Shown here piece by piece: positions 2,888 to 33,568 of a DNA stretch of 64,000 nt. The position numbers and the translations under genes were made by a program. Numbering within the stretch: position 1 is the first letter of the stretch; each line of letters begins with the position of its first letter. Where the stretch lies: the sequence record PZ445523.1; one strand, 5' to 3'. Under the pieces are notes generated by a model. It saw only the letters and a program-made list of their open reading frames with translations. It had not been told where the DNA came from and ran no database searches. This DNA is from a phage.

Positions 2888-4090
2888 TTATTTTGTAATA
2901 ATGTCAAACTGTTCTTTAAAGCAGAAGCTTGAATCTTGATGCTGATACAAAAATTCATATGCTTTTTCACGTTCGCGGTCATAAAGAGCTCGGTCAGATG
3001 ACAGTTCTTTAATACGTTCAAATGTTGATTCCATGTCATTTTCATCAAACCAAATGATACCGCTATCATGCGAGGTCAAAGGAGTATTATCAACACGGAA
3101 TTTTAAATTTTCGCCAGTAGATTTCCAAAATACCGGAATTGTTCCACATGCACCAAGCTCGAGATGAGTATATTCTAAAGAACGTTGTAGATATTTTTTG
3201 TCCAACTTACTCAACTGATAACCAAATCCGGATTTACTCATGCGTTCAAGCATTTCGCTATTTACATAACGGTCAAGAATTTGCGTTGGCAAATTAGGAG
3301 CAATTTTAATTTGGTCTACTTGATGAAGACGATAATACTCGTATGGAATTCCTTTTTCTTTAATAGGAATGAACGCTGGAGAACGTTCCAGACCTTCCAT
3401 AATAGTACTTAGTCCTGCAGGTTTAAGATGTTTTTCATGAAAATCAAACATCTGATAAAAACCTTTCCATGTAGTCGTACGACCAATCCAACGGTTGATA
3501 TTCATGTTAATTTCAGAAACATCTTTCCAGTATGTTGATCGAACCTTTGCAATATCCATCGGAGGCTGAAAGTTATATACGGTCGGTGCTTCTTCAATAT
3601 CATCAAACAGAGAAACAGTTTCTGGATACCACTCTTTCATCAGAACTTTATTAAAATCACCATTATCAGAATGGCTAAAAATAATATCAGCTCGACGAAC
3701 AGTTTCTTCTAATCCCAAATTTCGACGCAAAGAAAGAGAAGAATGGTCATGCTGATAAACTACAACACGAACCGAAGGTTTAATGTTATCAATAATTTTT
3801 TTATAGTTATTAATAGTGTCTTCTTCAACTGAAGTAGCAGGAACTGAATTGATAATTAGAATATCACAATCATTTACCAGCTTAAGTGTTTTATCGTATT
3901 CTTTTGCCAATAAAACCGGAATTGAAAATGATTTATAATCATGTGCACAGTTACGAGTAAATGATTTATCTTTAGCATAAACCAAAGTTACTTCATGACC
4001 ATTTTTAATAAACCAATCACGCTGCTCGAGTGAGAATTTTGTTACACCACAACCTTCAAGACCTCGAGCCATAAAAATACATACTTTCAT
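2888..4090 (-). CDS. agt: DNA alpha-glucosyltransferase (glucosylates hydroxymethylcytosine)
   Basis: 400 aa; near full-length identity to recalled T4 alpha-gt (MRICIFMARGLEGCGVTKFSLEQRDWFIKNGHEV...). Confidence 0.95.
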   Translation of the reverse strand: MKVCIFMARGLEGCGVTKFSLEQRDWFIKNGHEVTLVYAKDKSFTRNCAHDYKSFSIPVLLAKEYDKTLKLVNDCDILIINSVPATSVEEDTINNYKKIIDNIKPSVRVVVYQHDHSSLSLRRNLGLEETVRRADIIFSHSDNGDFNKVLMKEWYPETVSLFDDIEEAPTVYNFQPPMDIAKVRSTYWKDVSEINMNINRWIGRTTTWKGFYQMFDFHEKHLKPAGLSTIMEGLERSPAFIPIKEKGIPYEYYRLHQVDQIKIAPNLPTQILDRYVNSEMLERMSKSGFGYQLSKLDKKYLQRSLEYTHLELGACGTIPVFWKSTGENLKFRVDNTPLTSHDSGIIWFDENDMESTFERIKELSSDRALYDREREKAYEFLYQHQDSSFCFKEQFDIITK

Positions 4091-7494: not shown

Positions 7495-7818
7495 TTAATC
7501 TTCTATGATATCTCTATCATATCCAAGTGAAATGAGAGTTTCTTTGAAGTGTTTAATGTTCTTTTGTCTAGAATCATTAATGAAAATGACTGGATAACGA
7601 ATGTTAAGAGATGTGAATCCAGCGCGTTTAGCAAGAGATACAATCAGTGGACGATCATACTCAATCTTACCGTTATTTGTAAGAACTTTATAGAAAGTAA
7701 AAGGAGCATTGAGCTCCTTTAGAAGTTTTGTAACTGATTGACATCCAGGACAACGACCTACTTCATCTGGAATTCCATAGACTTCAATCTTATTCTTTAA
7801 GTTCGAGTTTTGTTCCAC
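7495..7818 (-). CDS. nrdH: Glutaredoxin-like protein NrdH (start uncertain)
   Basis: CPGC redox motif in a thioredoxin-fold context (EVYGIPDEVGRCPGCQSV); lies upstream of nrdG/nrdD as in T4; ORF-track N-terminal extension rejected; GTG at 7818 is the nearest in-frame start. Confidence 0.6.
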   Translation of the reverse strand: MEQNSNLKNKIEVYGIPDEVGRCPGCQSVTKLLKELNAPFTFYKVLTNNGKIEYDRPLIVSLAKRAGFTSLNIRYPVIFINDSRQKNIKHFKETLISLGYDRDIIED

Positions 7819-8101
7819 GAGAAATAATTCCTTGGTAAGCCCAATAAGGAGGATTAACAGAATCATCACCAGAATTTTCTTCAGGGAAATAAACCTGGAT
7901 AACGAAGCCGGATTCATCAAAGGTGAAATAAGTAGTAGGCAGTTCACCTAACAAATCGGCACGAGCGTTGATTTCTTCGAGGTCTTGTTCACGTCCAGCC
8001 CAGAAGCTTGGGTTCAGACTACATTCATAGAAATAATAGTCATTACCGAACATATCAAAACCATTCCAACTCTCTACTACATACCGCTCAAAACTAATCA
8101 T
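7790..8101 (-). CDS. Hypothetical protein (103 aa)
   Basis: ORF with globular-looking composition; coupled to neighbours. Confidence 0.5.
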   Translation of the reverse strand: MISFERYVVESWNGFDMFGNDYYFYECSLNPSFWAGREQDLEEINARADLLGELPTTYFTFDESGFVIQVYFPEENSGDDSVNPPYWAYQGIISRGTKLELKE

Positions 8102-8103
8102 AA

Positions 8104-8319
8104 TTAAGCCTTTTTATCAAGAACAGCATTCAGCTTGTTAGTAATTTTATCCAGACGCTCATTGAACTCACTAGAAGATAAGCCCTTTTCTGGAGAAATT
8201 AAACTAATAACGAAAAATACAACAATAAAAGGAATAAGAAAAATAGCTCCAACTGCCATAAACAGAAAGAATGTTACAGTTGTAAGAAAATCAGCTAAAC
8301 CTTTACGAAATTTATACAT
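8104..8319 (-). CDS. Small membrane protein (71 aa)
   Basis: Two predicted transmembrane helices (FFLFMAVGAIFLIPFIVVFFVISLI). Confidence 0.5.
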   Translation of the reverse strand: MYKFRKGLADFLTTVTFFLFMAVGAIFLIPFIVVFFVISLISPEKGLSSSEFNERLDKITNKLNAVLDKKA

Positions 8320-16430: not shown

Positions 16431-17345
16431 TTAAGATTTAAGTAAATCAACAATTTTAATTAACTTTTCACGCTCAGATTTAGCTTTACTACTCAGTCCA
16501 GATAGTCTGAAAATTTCATCGTCATATTGTTGAATAGAAATATTCAGCTCTTCAATTTGCTTATTAAAATAATCAATTTGCTCAGAATGTTTTTCGTTAC
16601 TACGAACTGGTGCAGGTTTTGTAGGCAATTTAGTTGAACTGGATTCATCCGGGCGATAAATTAAAATACAATTTGAACCAATCGGGCATTTAGCACCAGA
16701 CACATATTCTAATGTTCCAGCTTCTTTTAAAACTTCAAAAGCTAAACAGAGATGATGCCCCATATTAACATAATCTGTAGAGCGAGCTCTGATGTAATAA
16801 TCATCTCCACGAGTACTAAATTTAAAGCATTTAAGGTCTTCTGTATTATTAGTTTTAAAAATCATTTGTTTATCTAGACCTTTAGCTAATCGAGCGCCTA
16901 ATGCTAATAATCGTCGTTGATTTTCCCACAAATCCGCAATCATTTGGTCGAATGATAATTTCGGCATTAGTCGGCCATAAAGGTCATATCCTTTATTATA
17001 ATTACGAAGGATTTCACTCGCGTTAATACGAGACAATGCTCCAATTTTATTAAGGGCTTTCATAATGCGATTAGATAAACTCATTCCAGACCCATTTGTT
17101 CGCTGTAAATGTTTTTCTAATCCAAATCCAATATCAACTTTAAATTTATCTAAAATTTCAGCATGAACATCTCTGTCAATAACATTCAAATCCAAAGTTG
17201 GGTTAAATCTATGAAAAAATTTATCTGGCTCTCCACGACGAAATACAGTCCATTCATTCATCATTTTTTTATTAACTAAGGATTTAATTACTGCATTGAC
17301 ATTATTAATTACTACTGACATATTTTCCTCACTCAATTTTACCAA
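16431..17345 (-). CDS. Hypothetical protein (304 aa) with C-terminal coiled coil
   Basis: Fourth member of the tandem set; C-terminal heptad segment. Confidence 0.55.
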   Translation of the reverse strand: MVKLSEENMSVVINNVNAVIKSLVNKKMMNEWTVFRRGEPDKFFHRFNPTLDLNVIDRDVHAEILDKFKVDIGFGLEKHLQRTNGSGMSLSNRIMKALNKIGALSRINASEILRNYNKGYDLYGRLMPKLSFDQMIADLWENQRRLLALGARLAKGLDKQMIFKTNNTEDLKCFKFSTRGDDYYIRARSTDYVNMGHHLCLAFEVLKEAGTLEYVSGAKCPIGSNCILIYRPDESSSTKLPTKPAPVRSNEKHSEQIDYFNKQIEELNISIQQYDDEIFRLSGLSSKAKSEREKLIKIVDLLKS

Positions 17346-17730
17346 TTACGCGGAATAAGATTGAACAGACTATATAAGTACCACATATAGATTGAACTAA
17401 TGCCATTCCAAAGAACCAAACAATATTATCAAACCATGTCTGTTTTACGTCGAAAGGACGTAAACTTACAGTAATATTATCACCTTTTTCTATTGATGAA
17501 TACATCTCTGGGGAAATATATTCACTAAATCTATAACCGTCTTTGAGTTCATATACGGCAATAAACGATAAACTAGACCCCTTTCCTTGAGTTCCTGTAA
17601 GGGTATTAACTACAGGAACATCATAATCTTTATAATGCATATAATCATTAATTGCGTAATAACCATATGCAATTACTATACATAAACAACATATCAATAA
17701 ATTCAATCTTTTAATTATCAACTGTTTCAT
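17329..17730 (-). CDS. Membrane protein (133 aa)
   Basis: N- and C-terminal hydrophobic helices; directly downstream of an early promoter. Confidence 0.5.
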   Translation of the reverse strand: MKQLIIKRLNLLICCLCIVIAYGYYAINDYMHYKDYDVPVVNTLTGTQGKGSSLSFIAVYELKDGYRFSEYISPEMYSSIEKGDNITVSLRPFDVKQTWFDNIVWFFGMALVQSICGTYIVCSILFRVIGKIE

Positions 17731-24281: not shown

Positions 24282-24668
24282 TTATTCGAGGGAAAGAAGA
24301 TACTTACTCTGGTAAAACATTCCAGTAATATCATCTATCGTGCTTTGGATGGCTGGAGGCATTTCTTTATAAATGCTGTTAGATTGGTCTAGTATGCGAT
24401 CAATCATTTTAATTGTGTCGGTAGGAAGTTTACTGGCATCTGGAATTGAAGGTGTGTATTTTCGACCAGAATACCCCAAATATTGCTCACCAAATTTATC
24501 AATCAAATCTGGCAACTCGGAGAAAATAAAATCGTATGCTTTGTGTCTAGCATAACTTTTAGTTTCAAAATGTGCAGAATGAAAATAAGCTTGTGCAGCC
24601 ATTAATAAACCTAAGTATTCATCTGCCTTTGAAGGTTTTCCACTTTGTGAAAAGTCGCTGAATTTCAT
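24282..24668 (-). CDS. Hypothetical protein (128 aa)
   Basis: ORF on the early strand, followed by a terminator hairpin. Confidence 0.5.
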
Positions 24669-24958
24669 TCAGTCTCCAATTTAATGTTCATAATTCTAGC
24701 GTATGATTGTGCCATCTCCGCGCCTCGTTCTATACATTCAAAATCAGAAGAGCACGGGTCATTTTTATAGGTCGTTCTCATAAAACTATAGAATTGTTCA
24801 GACGATTCTACGCTTTTATTTTCAAAAAGCATATAAACGTGCCTAATACCAGATTCCATAAATTTATCAAAATGAGGATCGGCATTCGCTTCAATCGATG
24901 GAGATAAAACAAATGACAATCCTAGCATGGCAAATAGTGCCGTTGCTTTTAAGGCCAT
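24665..24958 (-). CDS. Secreted protein with signal peptide (97 aa)
   Basis: N-terminal signal peptide (MALKATALFAMLGLSFVLSPSIEANA); Cys pair in the mature part. Confidence 0.5.
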   Translation of the reverse strand: MALKATALFAMLGLSFVLSPSIEANADPHFDKFMESGIRHVYMLFENKSVESSEQFYSFMRTTYKNDPCSSDFECIERGAEMAQSYARIMNIKLETE

Positions 24959-25997: not shown

Positions 25998-26179
25998 AAA
26001 GAATTTATATAATCAATGAGTTCTTGCTCTTTATCGTCGAAATCTTTACACAGTTCTTCGTATTCGTCAGTATTAAAAGGACCGCATTCATTACAAACTT
26101 TTTCCAATTCACTATTTTTATCCATAACTTCGTGGATAAGAGAAAAGAGTTTGTCTTTTTGTTCTTTGCTTAGGCTCAT
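25994..26179 (-). CDS. Small acidic helical protein (61 aa), paralog family member
   Basis: MSLSKEQKDKLFSLIHEV...; family motif. Confidence 0.5.
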   Translation of the reverse strand: MSLSKEQKDKLFSLIHEVMDKNSELEKVCNECGPFNTDEYEELCKDFDDKEQELIDYINSL

Positions 26180-26349
26180 ATATTAATTTCCAGAAGTTTT
26201 AAAATAATTCGCTTTTGCTTAAATATTTCCACAGTTAAATGATCAGTATCTTTTTGACCAATTCCAATGGCAAAACCTTTATTAACAGCGAGTTCAATTA
26301 AATTATCAAGTTCACGTAACACTTCGTATTGTAACTCAGAACTATTCAT
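26176..26349 (-). CDS. Hypothetical small protein (about 57 aa)
   Basis: Hand-translated ORF (MNSSELQYEVLRELDNLIELAV...); ATGA overlaps at both ends; below the ORF-track size cut-off. Confidence 0.4.
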   Translation of the reverse strand: MNSSELQYEVLRELDNLIELAVNKGFAIGIGQKDTDHLTVEIFKQKRIILKLLEINI

Positions 26350-26558
26350 TTTGGTTTACCTTCTTTAACGAAATCAGGATAAGGATAAAATCCTGAATAA
26401 AATCCTTCACCTTTATGATTGATGCATCCTTTATTAGAACAATAGCACCAATAATCGAAATCACAAGCCATTTCATCATTGCATAAAGCAAAAACAACCG
26501 GCCACTTACACTTTTCACAGTGGGCATTTTTAAGAATACTAGTTTGGCTCATAACCAT
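26346..26558 (-). CDS. Cysteine-rich small protein (70 aa)
   Basis: About ten Cys/His in CxxC-like spacing; likely a metal-binding fold. Confidence 0.5.
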   Translation of the reverse strand: MVMSQTSILKNAHCEKCKWPVVFALCNDEMACDFDYWCYCSNKGCINHKGEGFYSGFYPYPDFVKEGKPK

Positions 26559-26776
26559 GTCACCTTTAAGCAGTATTCTTCTACATGTTGTTTACGACCT
26601 TTCTTATCAATAAAGGTATATTCAACGAATGTTCCAATGTAGTCTTTATCTACATCATGTGGACTATTAATTGGACATTTAGTACGGCAAATGCGTTCCC
26701 ATTGACGAATAATTACTGCCTTATTCTTTGGGTCATACGGATGTGGATAATGTATATTCATAATAACGGTTCCCAA
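26549..26776 (-). CDS. Hypothetical protein (75 aa)
   Basis: ORF on the early strand. Confidence 0.45.
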   Translation of the reverse strand: MGTVIMNIHYPHPYDPKNKAVIIRQWERICRTKCPINSPHDVDKDYIGTFVEYTFIDKKGRKQHVEEYCLKVTWL

Positions 26777-27225
26777 TCAACAATCACAATTTCTAATTTA
26801 GAGGAATATGTATCTAAAATCCCCTCAATAATATCCCAGTTCCCTTTACCTATGCCTGCACCAATCCTAGGCATATAGATTGTAGGTTTAATCAGTTTAT
26901 TTTCACCAAACTCATTTAATTCTAACATACAATTCATTAAAGCGGAATACTCAAAATTTGGCCCTGGTTGAAATTGAGTATAAAGATTGAAGCAGTAAGC
27001 TTTATGAGTCCTAAAGTATTTTTCATAGACTGAGTAAGAACCGAGTTTAGTTACATCGCCCCATTCTGTCTGTAATTTATCAGCTTCCAAAATTTTAGGG
27101 AAAGCTTTGGTTAATTGACCCGCTACGCCTGAACCCATAGTATGAAAACAATTGCATCCATGCGCAATATTTTTACCTTCAGCGAAAAGGGCGACAATAT
27201 CGCCCTTGATATATTTTACAATCAT
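26758..27225 (-). CDS. Macro-domain protein (ADP-ribose binding or hydrolase fold)
   Basis: Macro-domain signatures: NC...MGSGVAGQ (glycine-rich loop) and PRIGAGIGKG. Confidence 0.55.
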   Translation of the reverse strand: MIVKYIKGDIVALFAEGKNIAHGCNCFHTMGSGVAGQLTKAFPKILEADKLQTEWGDVTKLGSYSVYEKYFRTHKAYCFNLYTQFQPGPNFEYSALMNCMLELNEFGENKLIKPTIYMPRIGAGIGKGNWDIIEGILDTYSSKLEIVIVDWEPLL

Positions 27226-27569
27226 CTAGTACTCAATCCTCGATTATAAGAATCTACCAAACGGTCAACCATTGAATGACAAGCGGCTTTATCTTTCTCC
27301 TCCGCAACTGAGCATTCTAAGGTATTCCACTTTTTAGCATATCGTTTTAATAATGTATCGTTTTTGTATCTGCTTGATTTATCTCTTTCTCCGTCTTTAT
27401 ATGCATATATTAATTTCTGTGCAAATTCAGCTTGGCATGCTTTATTTTTCCCACAATAATCTGCCGCAGTGCGGTTTACATATTCTCTAATTTCAGTATA
27501 TGATGTATCTGCTGACGCAGAAGCAGAAAATGAAATTAATCCTATACATAAAACCAAAATTTTAGTCAT
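27222..27569 (-). CDS. Secreted Cys-containing protein (115 aa); occupies the T4 vs position
   Basis: Signal peptide (MTKILVLCIGLISFSASASA); four Cys; lies between tk and regB; identity with T4 Vs not verified. Confidence 0.45.
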   Translation of the reverse strand: MTKILVLCIGLISFSASASADTSYTEIREYVNRTAADYCGKNKACQAEFAQKLIYAYKDGERDKSSRYKNDTLLKRYAKKWNTLECSVAEEKDKAACHSMVDRLVDSYNRGLSTR

Positions 27570-28107
27570 TTACTATTTCCAAAAGTTTATTATTTTTAAG
27601 GTAATTAGCCTTTTCTAGGACTTCAGAAGCATATTTAGAACCAGCTTTAACATTCCATCCCGAATTATAAGAGGATATTGCTTTTCTTATATCGCCCTTA
27701 TGTATATTTAACCAATAAGAAAGTTCAATGTACGCCCAGGAAGCTGAATTGGATCGTTTATTCAACATTCTTTTTATTTCAGCATCGGTCATATTATAAC
27801 CAAGTTCCTTAACTCTTGCTCGCATAGTAGGCAAATAATTTTGGAACATTCCATAGGCGTGATGCTTTGGTTTAGATTTTAAATTAACTCCGCCAGAGCT
27901 TTCTTGCCATAAAATAGCAGCCATTATATGACCTAATCCGCTCTTGTGGATATTTTTGTGTGTTTTATATTTTCCATCCTTAGAAAATTGTTCCCCGAAT
28001 TGATACGCGTAACGCATGTTATCGAGTTGGACATTACTGAAAGTATGCTCGGAGCTATGTGCCATCATTGAAATGGCCAATAGACCAGCGAGTAGTGCTT
28101 TTCTCAT
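27562..28107 (-). CDS. Secreted lytic transglycosylase-like protein (SLT domain)
   Basis: Signal peptide; SLT-type motifs WQESSGG (catalytic Glu), YGMFQ and SSYNSG. Confidence 0.55.
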   Translation of the reverse strand: MRKALLAGLLAISMMAHSSEHTFSNVQLDNMRYAYQFGEQFSKDGKYKTHKNIHKSGLGHIMAAILWQESSGGVNLKSKPKHHAYGMFQNYLPTMRARVKELGYNMTDAEIKRMLNKRSNSASWAYIELSYWLNIHKGDIRKAISSYNSGWNVKAGSKYASEVLEKANYLKNNKLLEIVND

Positions 28108-28114
28108 GCTTACC

Positions 28115-28576
28115 TCATTGAGTTTTAATTACTGCTTTAGAAGCCTTTCCTGGTAAACGACGACTGTTGATAATTGCCATCCTACATTGAAGTGACGGGT
28201 CTTTGAACTTCTCGTTAGGTTTACAAACTGTAAATCCAAGCCAAAGATTTCCATCTGTGATTTCTAAACGTCCAGGACGATATTCAACCCCATCAATAAA
28301 ATCCTCATCAATGTCAGGACGCGGAGGCATACTCAGGAATTCATTAACTTCTAAAACATGGTCTTTTATTTTATGGAATAATTCAAAAACGTATGTCTCA
28401 TCAATCTCCCGTTGAATTGCACGATCAAGAAGATGCTGAGAATATTTTAGATGAAACGATGAGACCCCTGCTGCTTTTGATGCCTCACGAATCTCATTGT
28501 TAATTTGACGAAACTCCGACTCAAAGTGACGACGAAGCTTATTTCGACGGATAAAAACTTCAGTGTTGATAGTCAT
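28115..28576 (-). CDS. regB: Sequence-specific endoribonuclease RegB
   Basis: 153 aa; sequence matches T4 RegB (MTINTEVFIRRNKLRRHFESEFRQINNEIREASKAAGV...). Confidence 0.92.
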   Translation of the reverse strand: MTINTEVFIRRNKLRRHFESEFRQINNEIREASKAAGVSSFHLKYSQHLLDRAIQREIDETYVFELFHKIKDHVLEVNEFLSMPPRPDIDEDFIDGVEYRPGRLEITDGNLWLGFTVCKPNEKFKDPSLQCRMAIINSRRLPGKASKAVIKTQ

Positions 28577-28604
28577 GTTATTCTCCTCTTAACTGATAGG
28601 AAAA

Positions 28605-28633
28605 TTATACCACAGCCAAGAGGAAAAGTAAAC
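28605..28633 (-). promoter_or_regulatory. Early promoter upstream of regB
   Basis: Minus-strand GTTTAC, about 18-nt spacer, TATAAT; then AAGAGGAGAA and the regB ATG. Confidence 0.55.
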
Positions 28634-32739: not shown

Positions 32740-33209
32740 TCAGCGATAAAGCTATTTAAATTTTGGGTATATTTCTTTTCATCAAAAATCTTTTGTTGTC
32801 TGCGTAAACGCCATGGCATTTCAATGAACACGCACCATATTCCAGATAATATTGCTGCTGTCAAAATATTAACAAGCATAATTAAAAGAATCCAATCTCC
32901 TGTTCTGCCTATTGGACTTTCTCCAAAGAAGCAAAATACGAATGATGACACAGGAAGACTAATGATATACCACAGAATCATAATCTTATTTGTAAACCAA
33001 TCAGCATTTGTTAACTTAGCGCGACCGTTTTGAATACATACGAACTTATCATCTGTTATAGTAGATGGCTTAGCTGCTTGATATCCCATTCTAAACTCCC
33101 TAATCAACAAATTTTTCATATCTTCGGAACAACCATTCCAGTCAACTCTATCAACTGAAATGCCATCATCCCCATCATCTAAATCATACCAGCGAGTTTT
33201 TAAAATCAT
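32721..33209 (-). CDS. Membrane protein (162 aa), tandem paralog 1
   Basis: Two or three transmembrane helices; C-terminal FIAECRKLK motif shared with the next two ORFs. Confidence 0.5.
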   Translation of the reverse strand: MILKTRWYDLDDGDDGISVDRVDWNGCSEDMKNLLIREFRMGYQAAKPSTITDDKFVCIQNGRAKLTNADWFTNKIMILWYIISLPVSSFVFCFFGESPIGRTGDWILLIMLVNILTAAILSGIWCVFIEMPWRLRRQQKIFDEKKYTQNLNSFIAECRKLK

Positions 33210-33568
33210 TTAATTTTCCTACAATCACTCACAAACTCTTCCATTGATTCTTTTTCAATATAAGACATGTAGCTATTATATTCCTTTAATTGTATTTTGT
33301 AATCCTTTTTTCTTTGCCAATTTATTTTAAAATTATCATAATGAAAATATAACATGGTACCAAAGAATGAAAATAATGAAATAATTTTAGTATAGCGAAG
33401 TTCACTCCAAAATTCTATTATATTTACTGTGCCGTCAATGTTTAAAATAAGACAGTCAATTAACAATCCAAAAAGACTACCCGCAAGAGCTGCAAATGCT
33501 GATACGGCAAGAATTAATAGTGCCTCTGGAAACGAATATTTAACTTTATTTAGTTTTGGCTTTTGCAT
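33206..33568 (-). CDS. Membrane protein (120 aa), tandem paralog 2
   Basis: Transmembrane helices; C-terminal FVSDCRKIK. Confidence 0.5.
   Translation of the reverse strand: MQKPKLNKVKYSFPEALLILAVSAFAALAGSLFGLLIDCLILNIDGTVNIIEFWSELRYTKIISLFSFFGTMLYFHYDNFKINWQRKKDYKIQLKEYNSYMSYIEKESMEEFVSDCRKIK

Follow-up and report, generated by a model that had tools for sequence, protein, structure and literature searches.

The window analysed here (the whole stretch of phage DNA, 64,000 nucleotides, record PZ445523.1) belongs to a Tequatrovirus, with 99.2% nucleotide identity to T4 in the region considered. Two overlapping open reading frames had been proposed at 27222-28107, and both are present there, on the minus strand, with an 8-nt overlap between the stop codon of one and the start codon of the other (Table 1). 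The product of the upstream ORF is 100% identical to T4 Vs.1 (UniProt P13311; ORF 61.4 of X04567, phrog_600 family), and that of the downstream ORF is identical to T4 Vs (UniProt P13310; ORF 60.9 in T4 naming) at 115/115 residues. By their sequences, both genes are already known, as T4 vs.1 and vs. The comparison with T4 that the original prediction recommended thus also names the smaller protein, which had been placed only where vs would be expected and left unnamed. Vs.1 differs in nothing from its T4 counterpart, including its position between regB and vs. Vs is a member of phrog_1256 (E=1.7e-39), and its family is also represented by precomputed PF26829 assignments.

Table 1. Features of the vs.1-vs region, with positions in the window.
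Feature	Position	Strand	Basis or remarks
Promoter-like site upstream of regB	28604..28632	-	Consensus scan, 10/12 matches, extended -10 TG
vs.1 CDS	27562..28107	-	ORF list; 181 aa; precursor of predicted secreted SLT/GH23-type lytic transglycosylase
Vs.1 predicted Sec signal peptide, residues 1-18 (MRKALLAGLLAISMMAHS then SEHT)	28054..28107	-	Heuristic
SLT domain core, residues 61-154	27646..27927	-	Extent of PF01464 match
E69 codon (WQES), predicted catalytic glutamate	27901..27903	-	Invariant in homologue alignment; aligned to Slt70 E505
vs.1 stop/vs start overlap, 8 nt (ATGACTAA)	27562..27569	-	Direct sequence reading
vs CDS	27222..27569	-	115 aa; precursor of small predicted secreted four-Cys helical protein; annotated "valyl-tRNA synthetase modifier"
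Vs predicted Sec signal peptide, residues 1-20 (MTKILVLCIGLISFSASASA then DTSY)	27510..27569	-	Heuristic
Mature Vs, residues 21-115 (predicted)	27225..27509	-	95 aa, 11.05 kDa, pI 8.9

Vs.1 is, judging from sequence and model, an SLT/GH23-type (family-1) lytic transglycosylase. Its match to the Pfam SLT profile (PF01464, residues 61-154; 25.1 bits, E=1.4e-5) exceeds the curated cut-off of 21.3 bits, the same domain is precomputed for many of its homologues, and PHROG matches to the SLT regions of a lytic tail protein and an endolysin cover residues 60-154. The three motifs originally read in this ORF are genuine: QESSGG carries the glutamate of the E-S motif that closes the first core helix in this family (E69-S70), YGMFQ corresponds to motif II, G-L-M-Q (G86-M-F-Q89), and SYNSG to motif III, A-Y-N-x-G (S146-Y147-N148-S-G150). 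An alignment of 31 Vs.1 homologues shows no variation at residues E69, S70, G86, F88, Q89, Y147, N148 and G150. The original prediction had made its reading depend on alignment of these motifs to the catalytic-glutamate region, and E69 does align with the RQES sequence of E. coli Slt70 (hhalign; statistically weak, E=0.1-0.3), at preprotein position E505, which we take to correspond, given a signal peptide of 27 residues, to catalytic E478 in mature-enzyme numbering. The AF2 model (pLDDT 88.5) has a lysozyme-like alpha fold, for which the best Foldseek matches in the PDB are MltD, a Ralstonia GH23 chitinase, Slt/LtgA and the phi6 lysin, with probabilities of ~1.0 but TM scores of only 0.44-0.54 and E values of at least 7e-3. 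Sequence searches of the PDB with Vs.1, by single sequence and by profile, gave nothing significant (best match a goose-type lysozyme, E=0.39), and NCBIfam yielded no meaningful match for either Vs.1 or Vs. The SLT similarity of vs.1 was described in print in 2003 and 2006 (PMC1524935) and is also stated in some GenBank records; no experimental characterisation of Vs.1 was found in the literature searched.

Vs.1 shares the E-S, G-x-(M/F)-Q and (A/S)-Y-N-x-G motifs and the lysozyme-like alpha fold with the catalytic domain of Slt70, with MltD and with SLT/GH23 enzymes, but the mature protein (~163 aa, 18.8 kDa, pI 9.7) is much smaller, consisting of a single domain without superhelical, LysM or lipid anchor modules. 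In the AF2 model it also shows an additional helix at the N-terminus and a short beta hairpin, and its similarity to these enzymes is marginal by all three measures (Pfam, hhalign and a TM score of ~0.5). VirB1, P19 of plasmid R1 and IagB/IpgF, made by mobile elements, combine a Sec signal peptide with one SLT domain in ~150-200 aa and open murein locally. The predicted architecture of Vs.1 is the same; no trans-envelope machine is known to assemble early in T4 infection.

Signal peptides were called with a heuristic, rather than SignalP, that looks for K/R in the n-region, a hydrophobic h-region of 10-16 residues and, in the c-region, small residues at positions -3 and -1. As a control for specificity, it was applied to the 160 ORFs of the window, of which it flagged seven, including that of the known periplasmic protein RI (positive control). 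Both genes had been said to begin with signal peptides, and the heuristic bears this out, finding one in each protein, with cleavage predicted after residue 18 of Vs.1 (between AHS and SEHT) and after residue 20 of Vs (between ASA and DTSY); the contrary outcome, a protein with no predicted signal, did not arise. In the AF2 models, pLDDT is low (~56) for the first 20 residues of Vs.1 and below 50 for residues 1-21 of Vs. An equivalent signal is present in 31/31 aligned Vs.1 homologues, the signal-like N-terminus of Vs is kept in homologues with as little as ~20% identity, and in all full-length homologues of both proteins the signal persists as a feature though its sequence drifts. At five loci, the Vs homologue carries a lipobox signal (LSGC) in place of the usual signal peptide, and between codons 6 and 99 of vs there is no in-frame start from which a signal-less protein could be made. 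Both Vs and Vs.1 are thus predicted, on these sequence features, to be exported to the periplasm. Full-length His-tagged Vs made in the E. coli cytoplasm has been reported to be insoluble (PMC8076793), which speaks indirectly for export.

The Vs precursor (13.06 kDa) contains five cysteines, four of them in the mature part, so that its earlier description as Cys-rich holds only modestly. AF2 predicts a four-helix bundle (pLDDT ~90 for the mature part) in which C39/C45 and C86/C97 would flank the two helix-hairpin turns. The four cysteines of the mature part were found in all 44 distinct full-length members of the family, and C39, C45 and C97 are invariant columns. By sequence comparison, Vs evolves much faster than its neighbours, with a mean identity to the T4 type of 37%, versus 62% for Vs.1, 56% for RegB and 52% for Tk.4. 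In Salmonella S16-like phages, Vs has 26-27% identity, against 70-73% for Vs.1, and the neighbours of Vs stay at 65-73% identity between E. coli and Salmonella phages.

Sequence searches of the PDB with Vs (single-sequence and profile) gave nothing significant, and an exhaustive search of 1.84 billion representatives with a Vs-profile HMM recovered only seven clusters, all of short phage-type proteins, with no bacterial relatives. Known muramidase inhibitors showed no similarity to Vs in sequence or structure comparisons. The LprI/DUF1311 inhibitors (E. coli YecT, PF07007) are, like Vs, secreted helical proteins of ~100 residues, and the family has four conserved cysteines. Membership of Vs in this family was rejected: the hhalign match to YecT covers the signal peptide alone, and PF07007, which recovers YecT at 1e-17, does not match members of the Vs family. 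A functional precedent for a possible role of Vs is provided by T4 Spackle (sp), a small, early, signal-peptide-bearing protein that inhibits the gp5 tail lysozyme in the periplasm. Spackle and Vs showed no relationship in sequence or fold, and they differ in that Spackle targets the enzyme of a superinfecting phage, whereas Vs is encoded beside its putative partner.

The pairing of the two genes is conserved. In 47/47 metagenomic T4-like loci from IMG/VR, the ORF directly after vs.1 encodes a member of the Vs family, at a distance of -8 to +3 nt, and the pair persists in Acinetobacter-phage loci without regB and tk.4. The overlap of the vs.1 stop and the vs start likely provides translational coupling. 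The adjacency of regB and vs.1 is kept in 45/47 loci, nearly as many, so general synteny could explain the vs.1-vs pairing. Secreted SLTs resembling Vs.1, but unaccompanied by a Vs, are present in Aeromonas phage 31, Det7 and Felixounavirus, indicating that Vs.1 does not need Vs. A periplasmic muralytic enzyme expressed early had been thought unusual, a view that does not hold: 2046 phage records contain Vs.1 homologues, and T4-like phages at large share the pair of vs.1 and vs.

Data on expression and fitness were taken from the literature. In published T4 omics, vs and vs.1 belong to the early RNA and middle protein classes, with both proteins detected (PMC9697503), in agreement with their original description as early genes. 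The promoter-like site upstream of regB is a weak candidate for the origin of a possible regB-vs.1-vs-tk.4 transcript: consensus scanning of the region finds no more such sites than in shuffles. Potential promoters are also annotated here in X04567. Transposon insertions in LB gave 26.6 reads per TA site for vs and 22.6 for vs.1, and 290, 179 and 652 for the flanking genes tk.4, regB and vs.3, respectively (HIDEN-SEQ preprint supplement, 10.1101/2025.11.20.689424). Insertions in vs and vs.1 are similarly under-represented in LB, with a similar fitness cost. Further depletion in M9 was clearly larger for vs (log2FC -2.19) than for vs.1 (-0.87), and vs is the most depleted and most condition-dependent T4 gene in minimal medium, in which a clean vs deletion impairs plaques (10.1101/2025.11.20.689424). 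The weaker vs.1 effect could result from polarity on vs.

We propose that vs.1-vs constitutes a conserved, coupled, early-transcribed module, the products of which are exported by the Sec pathway, with Vs acting with or on Vs.1; we give this reading a probability of about 45%. The two genes, transcribed early in infection, would be translated in a coupled manner, and the Sec pathway would export Vs.1 and Vs, with cleavage of their signal peptides, into the periplasm of the infected cell. Mature Vs.1, small and single-domain, would then cleave the MurNAc-beta-1,4-GlcNAc bonds of the host murein, with E69 as the single acid/base catalyst, and the Vs four-helix bundle would be stapled by disulfides C39-C45 and C86-C97. 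Lytic transglycosylases, unlike lysozymes, cut these bonds without hydrolysis and leave 1,6-anhydroMurNAc. Above all, we infer a physical or functional interaction, in which Vs, once in the periplasm, would cooperate with Vs.1 or act upon it, perhaps as a regulator, an inhibitor or a targeting partner, and may keep the early-made muralytic enzyme from causing premature lysis. The absence of any link between Vs and the known muramidase inhibitors, together with the existence of Vs.1-like SLTs without Vs, speaks against this module. A stronger statement, that the product of the ORF named vs in T4 and hundreds of other phage genomes is no cytoplasmic ValRS modifier but a disulfide-bonded protein of the periplasm that partners or regulates Vs.1, is one that we regard as doubtful, if worth serious consideration.

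The curated T4 annotation also runs against the module, since it assigns this ORF to vs, the product of which, tau, binds cytoplasmic ValRS. The tau peptide has a size of ~10 kDa. The annotation may be correct, with ORF 60.9 being tau acting on the cytoplasmic host ValRS, an N-terminus that is not a working signal or permits partial export, and an adjacency due to synteny; we consider this rather unlikely. The curated T4 records, phrog_1256 and the source names of PF26829 members all say Vs, mature Vs (11.0 kDa) is close in size to tau, and the conserved regB-vs.1 synteny would fit. According to work of the 1970s, vs reportedly has in vivo phenotypes on valS(ts) hosts, which would imply cytoplasmic action. 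Loss of a ValRS modifier might likewise cause the strong defect that vs mutants show specifically in M9 (10.1101/2025.11.20.689424); depletion in minimal medium is plausible for an enzyme of amino-acid use. A cytoplasmic location is nonetheless not what the features of Vs predict: the signal is conserved in homologues of as little as ~20% identity and sometimes replaced by a lipobox, signal-less Vs has no internal start, all full-length members keep four cysteines at hairpin turns, and positive charge at the N-terminus ahead of a hydrophobic helix would leave the C-terminal domain outside the cytoplasm. Were tau the 11-kDa cleavage product, it would have had to pass through the membrane. ValRS is highly conserved, and the divergence of Vs between E. 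coli and Salmonella phages, far above that of its neighbours, is hard to reconcile with docking on such a protein. The original prediction had seen a conflict between a signal peptide and a cytoplasmic tRNA-synthetase modifier; its reasoning is sound and is strengthened, at the level of prediction, by the conserved signals, the lipobox variants and the missing internal start. In the literature searched, which did not include the primary vs work of the 1970s, no signal peptide was noted for Vs and no new evidence for a Vs-ValRS association was found.

Both proteins might also be exported and act independently, Vs.1 remodelling murein and Vs having a target of its own in the periplasm or envelope; this could be a host lytic transglycosylase, a PBP or, as for Spackle and RI, a component of superinfection or lysis timing. 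The export features of both proteins, the functioning of Vs.1 homologues without Vs in other phage groups, the larger M9 defect of vs and the rapid divergence of Vs, typical of host-interface arms races, are consistent with such separate roles, which we judge unlikely given the strict adjacency with start/stop overlap in all 47 loci, the retention of the pair where regB and tk.4 are lost, and the similar LB cost of insertions in either gene. It is very unlikely, in our view, that ValRS modification is real but occurs after lysis or in two locations, with basic periplasmic Vs (pI 8.9) meeting acidic ValRS only on cell breakage or late in infection, or with a fraction of the precursor binding before export. 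Such a course would accommodate the strong export features and the fit of mature Vs to a processed peptide, and the modification has, according to the preprint, no established role in the biology of the phage (10.1101/2025.11.20.689424); the phenotypes said to occur on valS(ts) hosts favour a true intracellular interaction instead.

The same T4 sequence thus carries a name implying a cytoplasmic ValRS-binding peptide and features predicting a secreted, disulfide-bonded periplasmic protein. Few functional labels in the T4 genome are as old as that of Vs, and homology-based annotation has carried it over to hundreds of phage records. If Vs is not the ValRS modifier, tau and the modification of ValRS would map to another gene, or the association would have formed outside the normal compartment, and the role of the module in minimal-medium fitness would lie in cell-wall remodelling. 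If Vs is periplasmic and works with Vs.1, its label would be wrong or incomplete, the minimal-medium phenotype would require a cell-envelope explanation, and T4-like phages would have a widespread, uncharacterised early module for murein remodelling. If Vs is cytoplasmic after all, it would be instructive in showing that a signal-like N-terminus can be conserved without directing export.

The original prediction of two overlapping ORFs at 27222-28107 was borne out: both lie on the minus strand and overlap by 8 nt, with the start of vs located within the final vs.1 codons (…GTAAATGACTAA…), and the vs stop codon shares an ATGA junction with the start codon of the gene that follows. The order regB, vs.1, vs, tk.4 is that of T4, and the region is 99.2% identical at the DNA level to phage T4 and at most 99.5% identical to other Tequatrovirus genomes. 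Both genes are known T4 genes (ORFs 61.4 and 60.9, respectively, in the 1986 sequence X04567), and their products match T4 Vs.1 and Vs at 100% identity. Given this identity and gene order, the 115-aa partner, which had been left unnamed, is the ORF annotated in databases as "valyl-tRNA synthetase modifier". The window also carries an insertion of ~367 bp with respect to T4, in the tk.2/tk.3 interval.

Coordinates of the vs.1-vs region, of other ORFs in the window and of features in related phage and metagenomic loci (L-numbers)
Feature	Sequence	Coordinates	Strand	Remarks
regB	window	28115..28576		adjoins vs.1 as in T4
vs.1	window	27562..28107	minus	181-aa ORF
vs	window	27222..27569	minus	115-aa ORF
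tk.4	window	26758..27225		macro domain (Pfam Macro); directly downstream of vs; T4 Tk.4
T4 tk.3 equivalent	window	26549..26761		
Insertion relative to T4	window	26181-26547		
Small ORF in insertion	window	26346..26558	minus	70 aa, very Cys-rich (HCEKCKW…CYCSNKGC)
Small ORF in insertion	window	26176..26349	minus	57 aa
RI	window	24665..24958		
Other ORFs flagged by signal-peptide/TM heuristic	window	7495-7917, 8104-8319, 17329-17730, 33206-33568	minus	
Vs homologues with lipobox (MKKLFVLLVVFALSGC…), not Sec type I signal	L041, L042, L044, L045, L056	about 3049-3375		
Third secreted protein, Roth66	L008	2363-2755		130 aa
Third secreted protein, Mokit	L007	2324-2749		141 aa
Internally deleted Vs, phage vB_EcoM_005	L005 / L026	2402-2659 / 3041-3298		85 aa, two Cys left
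vs split in two ORFs	L044	3049-3376		metagenomic contig

Signal peptides were called heuristically, after von Heijne, by a charged n-region, a hydrophobic h-region and small residues at positions -3 and -1; both proteins were positive, as originally proposed. Predicted cleavage between MTKILVLCIGLISFSASASA and DTSY would yield a mature Vs of 95 aa (11.05 kDa, pI 8.9), and cleavage between MRKALLAGLLAISMMAHS and SEHT a mature Vs.1 of 163 aa (18.8 kDa, pI 9.65). The signal-like N-terminus is kept by all full-length Vs and Vs.1 homologues, despite free sequence drift, and is a low-confidence segment of both AF2 models. In a window-wide specificity scan covering all 160 ORFs that start with ATG and reach 50 aa or more, the heuristic flagged seven: Vs, Vs.1, RI (a periplasmic antiholin of known location) and four membrane-like ORFs, probably encoding membrane or exported proteins. 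There is no in-frame start codon for a signal-less Vs from codon 6 to codon 99, and five Vs homologues have a lipoprotein lipobox (…ALSGC) in place of the Sec signal. N-terminally His-tagged full-length Vs formed inclusion bodies in a structural-genomics study (PMC8076793). Judging from their sequences, Vs and Vs.1 both look exported.

Pfam SLT matched residues 61-154 of Vs.1 above its gathering score (25.1 versus 21.3 bits, E=1.4e-5), and PHROG lytic tail protein and endolysin profiles cover the same residues. Key residues of the SLT motifs recognized originally are invariant in an alignment of 31 homologues with identities down to 40% (E69 of WQES; G86, F88 and Q89 of GMFQ; Y147, N148 and G150 of SYNSG). 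A weak profile alignment with E. coli Slt70 (E=0.1-0.3) pairs WQES…GMFQ with RQES…GLMQ and places E69 on E505 of the Slt70 preprotein, which we take to be catalytic E478 of the mature enzyme, given a 27-residue signal peptide. AlphaFold2 modelled Vs.1 with confidence (pLDDT 88.5), and the best PDB matches of the model were the lytic transglycosylases MltD, Slt, LtgA and Slt70, a GH23 chitinase and the phi6 lysin, with a Foldseek probability of ~1.0, yet a TM of only ~0.5 and E-values of at least 7e-3. Vs.1 is thus assigned, from sequence, to the SLT/GH23 type, which fits both a lytic transglycosylase and a hydrolytic g-type muramidase. The assignment is not new: a marginal SLT match of vs.1 in six T4-like phages was published in 2006 (PMC1524935), citing a 2003 genome review, and some GenBank T4 records label the product "transglycosylase SLT domain-containing protein". 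The literature search found no experimental study of Vs.1.

Mature Vs is predicted by AF2 to form a four-helix bundle (residues 22-39, 43-62, 69-86 and 91-112; pLDDT ~90), with two hairpin turns carrying C39/C45 and C86/C97. Each of the 44 distinct full-length Vs-family sequences has all four Cys. In their alignment the columns of C39, C45 and C97 are invariant, and the position of the third Cys differs by 2-3 columns between the two subfamilies. A database search with the broad Vs alignment recovered 41 clusters, each with precomputed PF26829; those with named sources were nearly all phage records, several already called Vs by homology. All Vs-family proteins carry precomputed PF26829.1, which is absent from the Pfam set scanned, so hmmscan gives Vs no family. 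When 1.84 billion representatives were searched exhaustively by HMM, in a library without organism names, only seven clusters were returned, all short and Vs-sized. Fold searches with Vs gave no informative relatives, and an LprI/DUF1311-type lysozyme inhibitor was tested as a candidate identity for Vs and rejected.

Tblastn matches to Vs come from 796 phage records; those to Vs.1 come from 2046, among them records of Ackermannviridae and Felixounavirus. In some genomes Vs only seems to be missing, its sequence having diverged: the gene that follows vs.1 is labelled "hypothetical" in Klebsiella phage Roth66 and Acinetobacter phage Mokit, and its product fits the Vs profile (hhalign probability 97.7% and 86%, respectively), with a signal peptide and the four Cys aligned. 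Scanning of IMG/VR with the Vs.1 alignment yielded 47 loci (43-100% identity), in all of which the ORF directly 3' of vs.1 (gap -8 to +3 nt) matches the broad Vs HMM (E-values 3e-9 to 2e-56) and has a signal-like N-terminus; exactly four Cys are present in the mature part in 45, the other two being truncated. The pairing is confounded by general synteny, since regB also lies upstream of vs.1 in 45 of the 47 loci. Acinetobacter-phage loci without regB and tk.4 still have the pair, and tk.4 is often missing, or separated from vs by another gene, in the loci compared. On these genomic comparisons, vs.1 and vs form a conserved module. A secreted Vs.1-like SLT protein occurs without Vs in Aeromonas phage 31, Det7 and one Felixounavirus, indicating that Vs.1 is independent of Vs.

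In Roth66 and Mokit, vs is followed by a gene for a third signal-peptide protein (2-4 Cys, no Pfam match), forming a three-gene secreted cluster; a vs/tk.4 gap of ~400 nt, matching this gene in size, was present in the T4-like loci L021-L025, L038-L045, L047 and L056. Both T4 and the window lack the gene. An internally deleted and a split vs, each beside an intact vs.1, suggest that vs can decay in some lineages.

The early expression originally proposed agrees with T4 omics data, in which vs and vs.1 are classed as early RNA and middle protein (PMC9697503 supplement), so both proteins are made. Both genes are non-essential in the HIDEN-SEQ transposon preprint (10.1101/2025.11.20.689424), in which LB insertions give 26.6 reads per TA site in vs and 22.6 in vs.1, about ten-fold fewer than in flanking genes (tk.4, 290; regB, 179; vs.3, 652). 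This shared cost fits a common function and could also reflect a polar effect of insertions in vs.1 on vs, which it overlaps. The downstream tk.4, identified in the same preprint as the anti-DarTG2 macrodomain AdfM, is unaffected. In that preprint, vs is the most depleted gene in M9-glucose versus LB (log2FC -2.19, adjusted p rounded to 0; vs.1, -0.87, p=0.0055, adjusted p 0.155; supplementary table), and its clean deletion impairs plaques in M9-glucose. The M9 phenotype of vs is compatible with both a periplasmic module and a ValRS modifier.

The latter is the textbook assignment and the main rival: the vs ORF would encode tau, acting on ValRS in the cytoplasm. Mutants in vs have in-vivo phenotypes on valS(ts) hosts, which would need a cytoplasmic protein. 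Tau is ~10 kDa, nearer to mature Vs (11.0 kDa) than to the precursor (13.1 kDa); if tau is the vs product at about the mature mass, processing would be implied. ValRS is highly conserved among the hosts of these phages. Over diverged loci, mean identity to the T4-type protein is 37% for mature Vs, 62% for Vs.1, 56% for RegB and 52% for Tk.4, and in S16-like Salmonella phages it is 26-27% for Vs and 70-73% for Vs.1. This divergence weakly favours an envelope-facing protein over a ValRS ligand.

The best-supported reading is an early, translationally coupled vs.1-vs pair with both products exported, in which Vs.1 would be a small soluble lytic transglycosylase and Vs a disulfide-stapled four-helix protein that may work in the periplasm with or on Vs.1; we infer the export, the disulfides, the activity of Vs.1 and any Vs-Vs.1 contact. 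Spackle, a small periplasmic T4 protein inhibiting the gp5 lysozyme, provides a functional precedent for Vs, with no homology found between them. The literature search found no discussion of the export features of Vs against its ValRS label. The pair is of interest because the signs of export in Vs, which are strong and conserved, conflict with a label that places its function in the cytoplasm; the strict coupling of vs.1 and vs adds to this interest.
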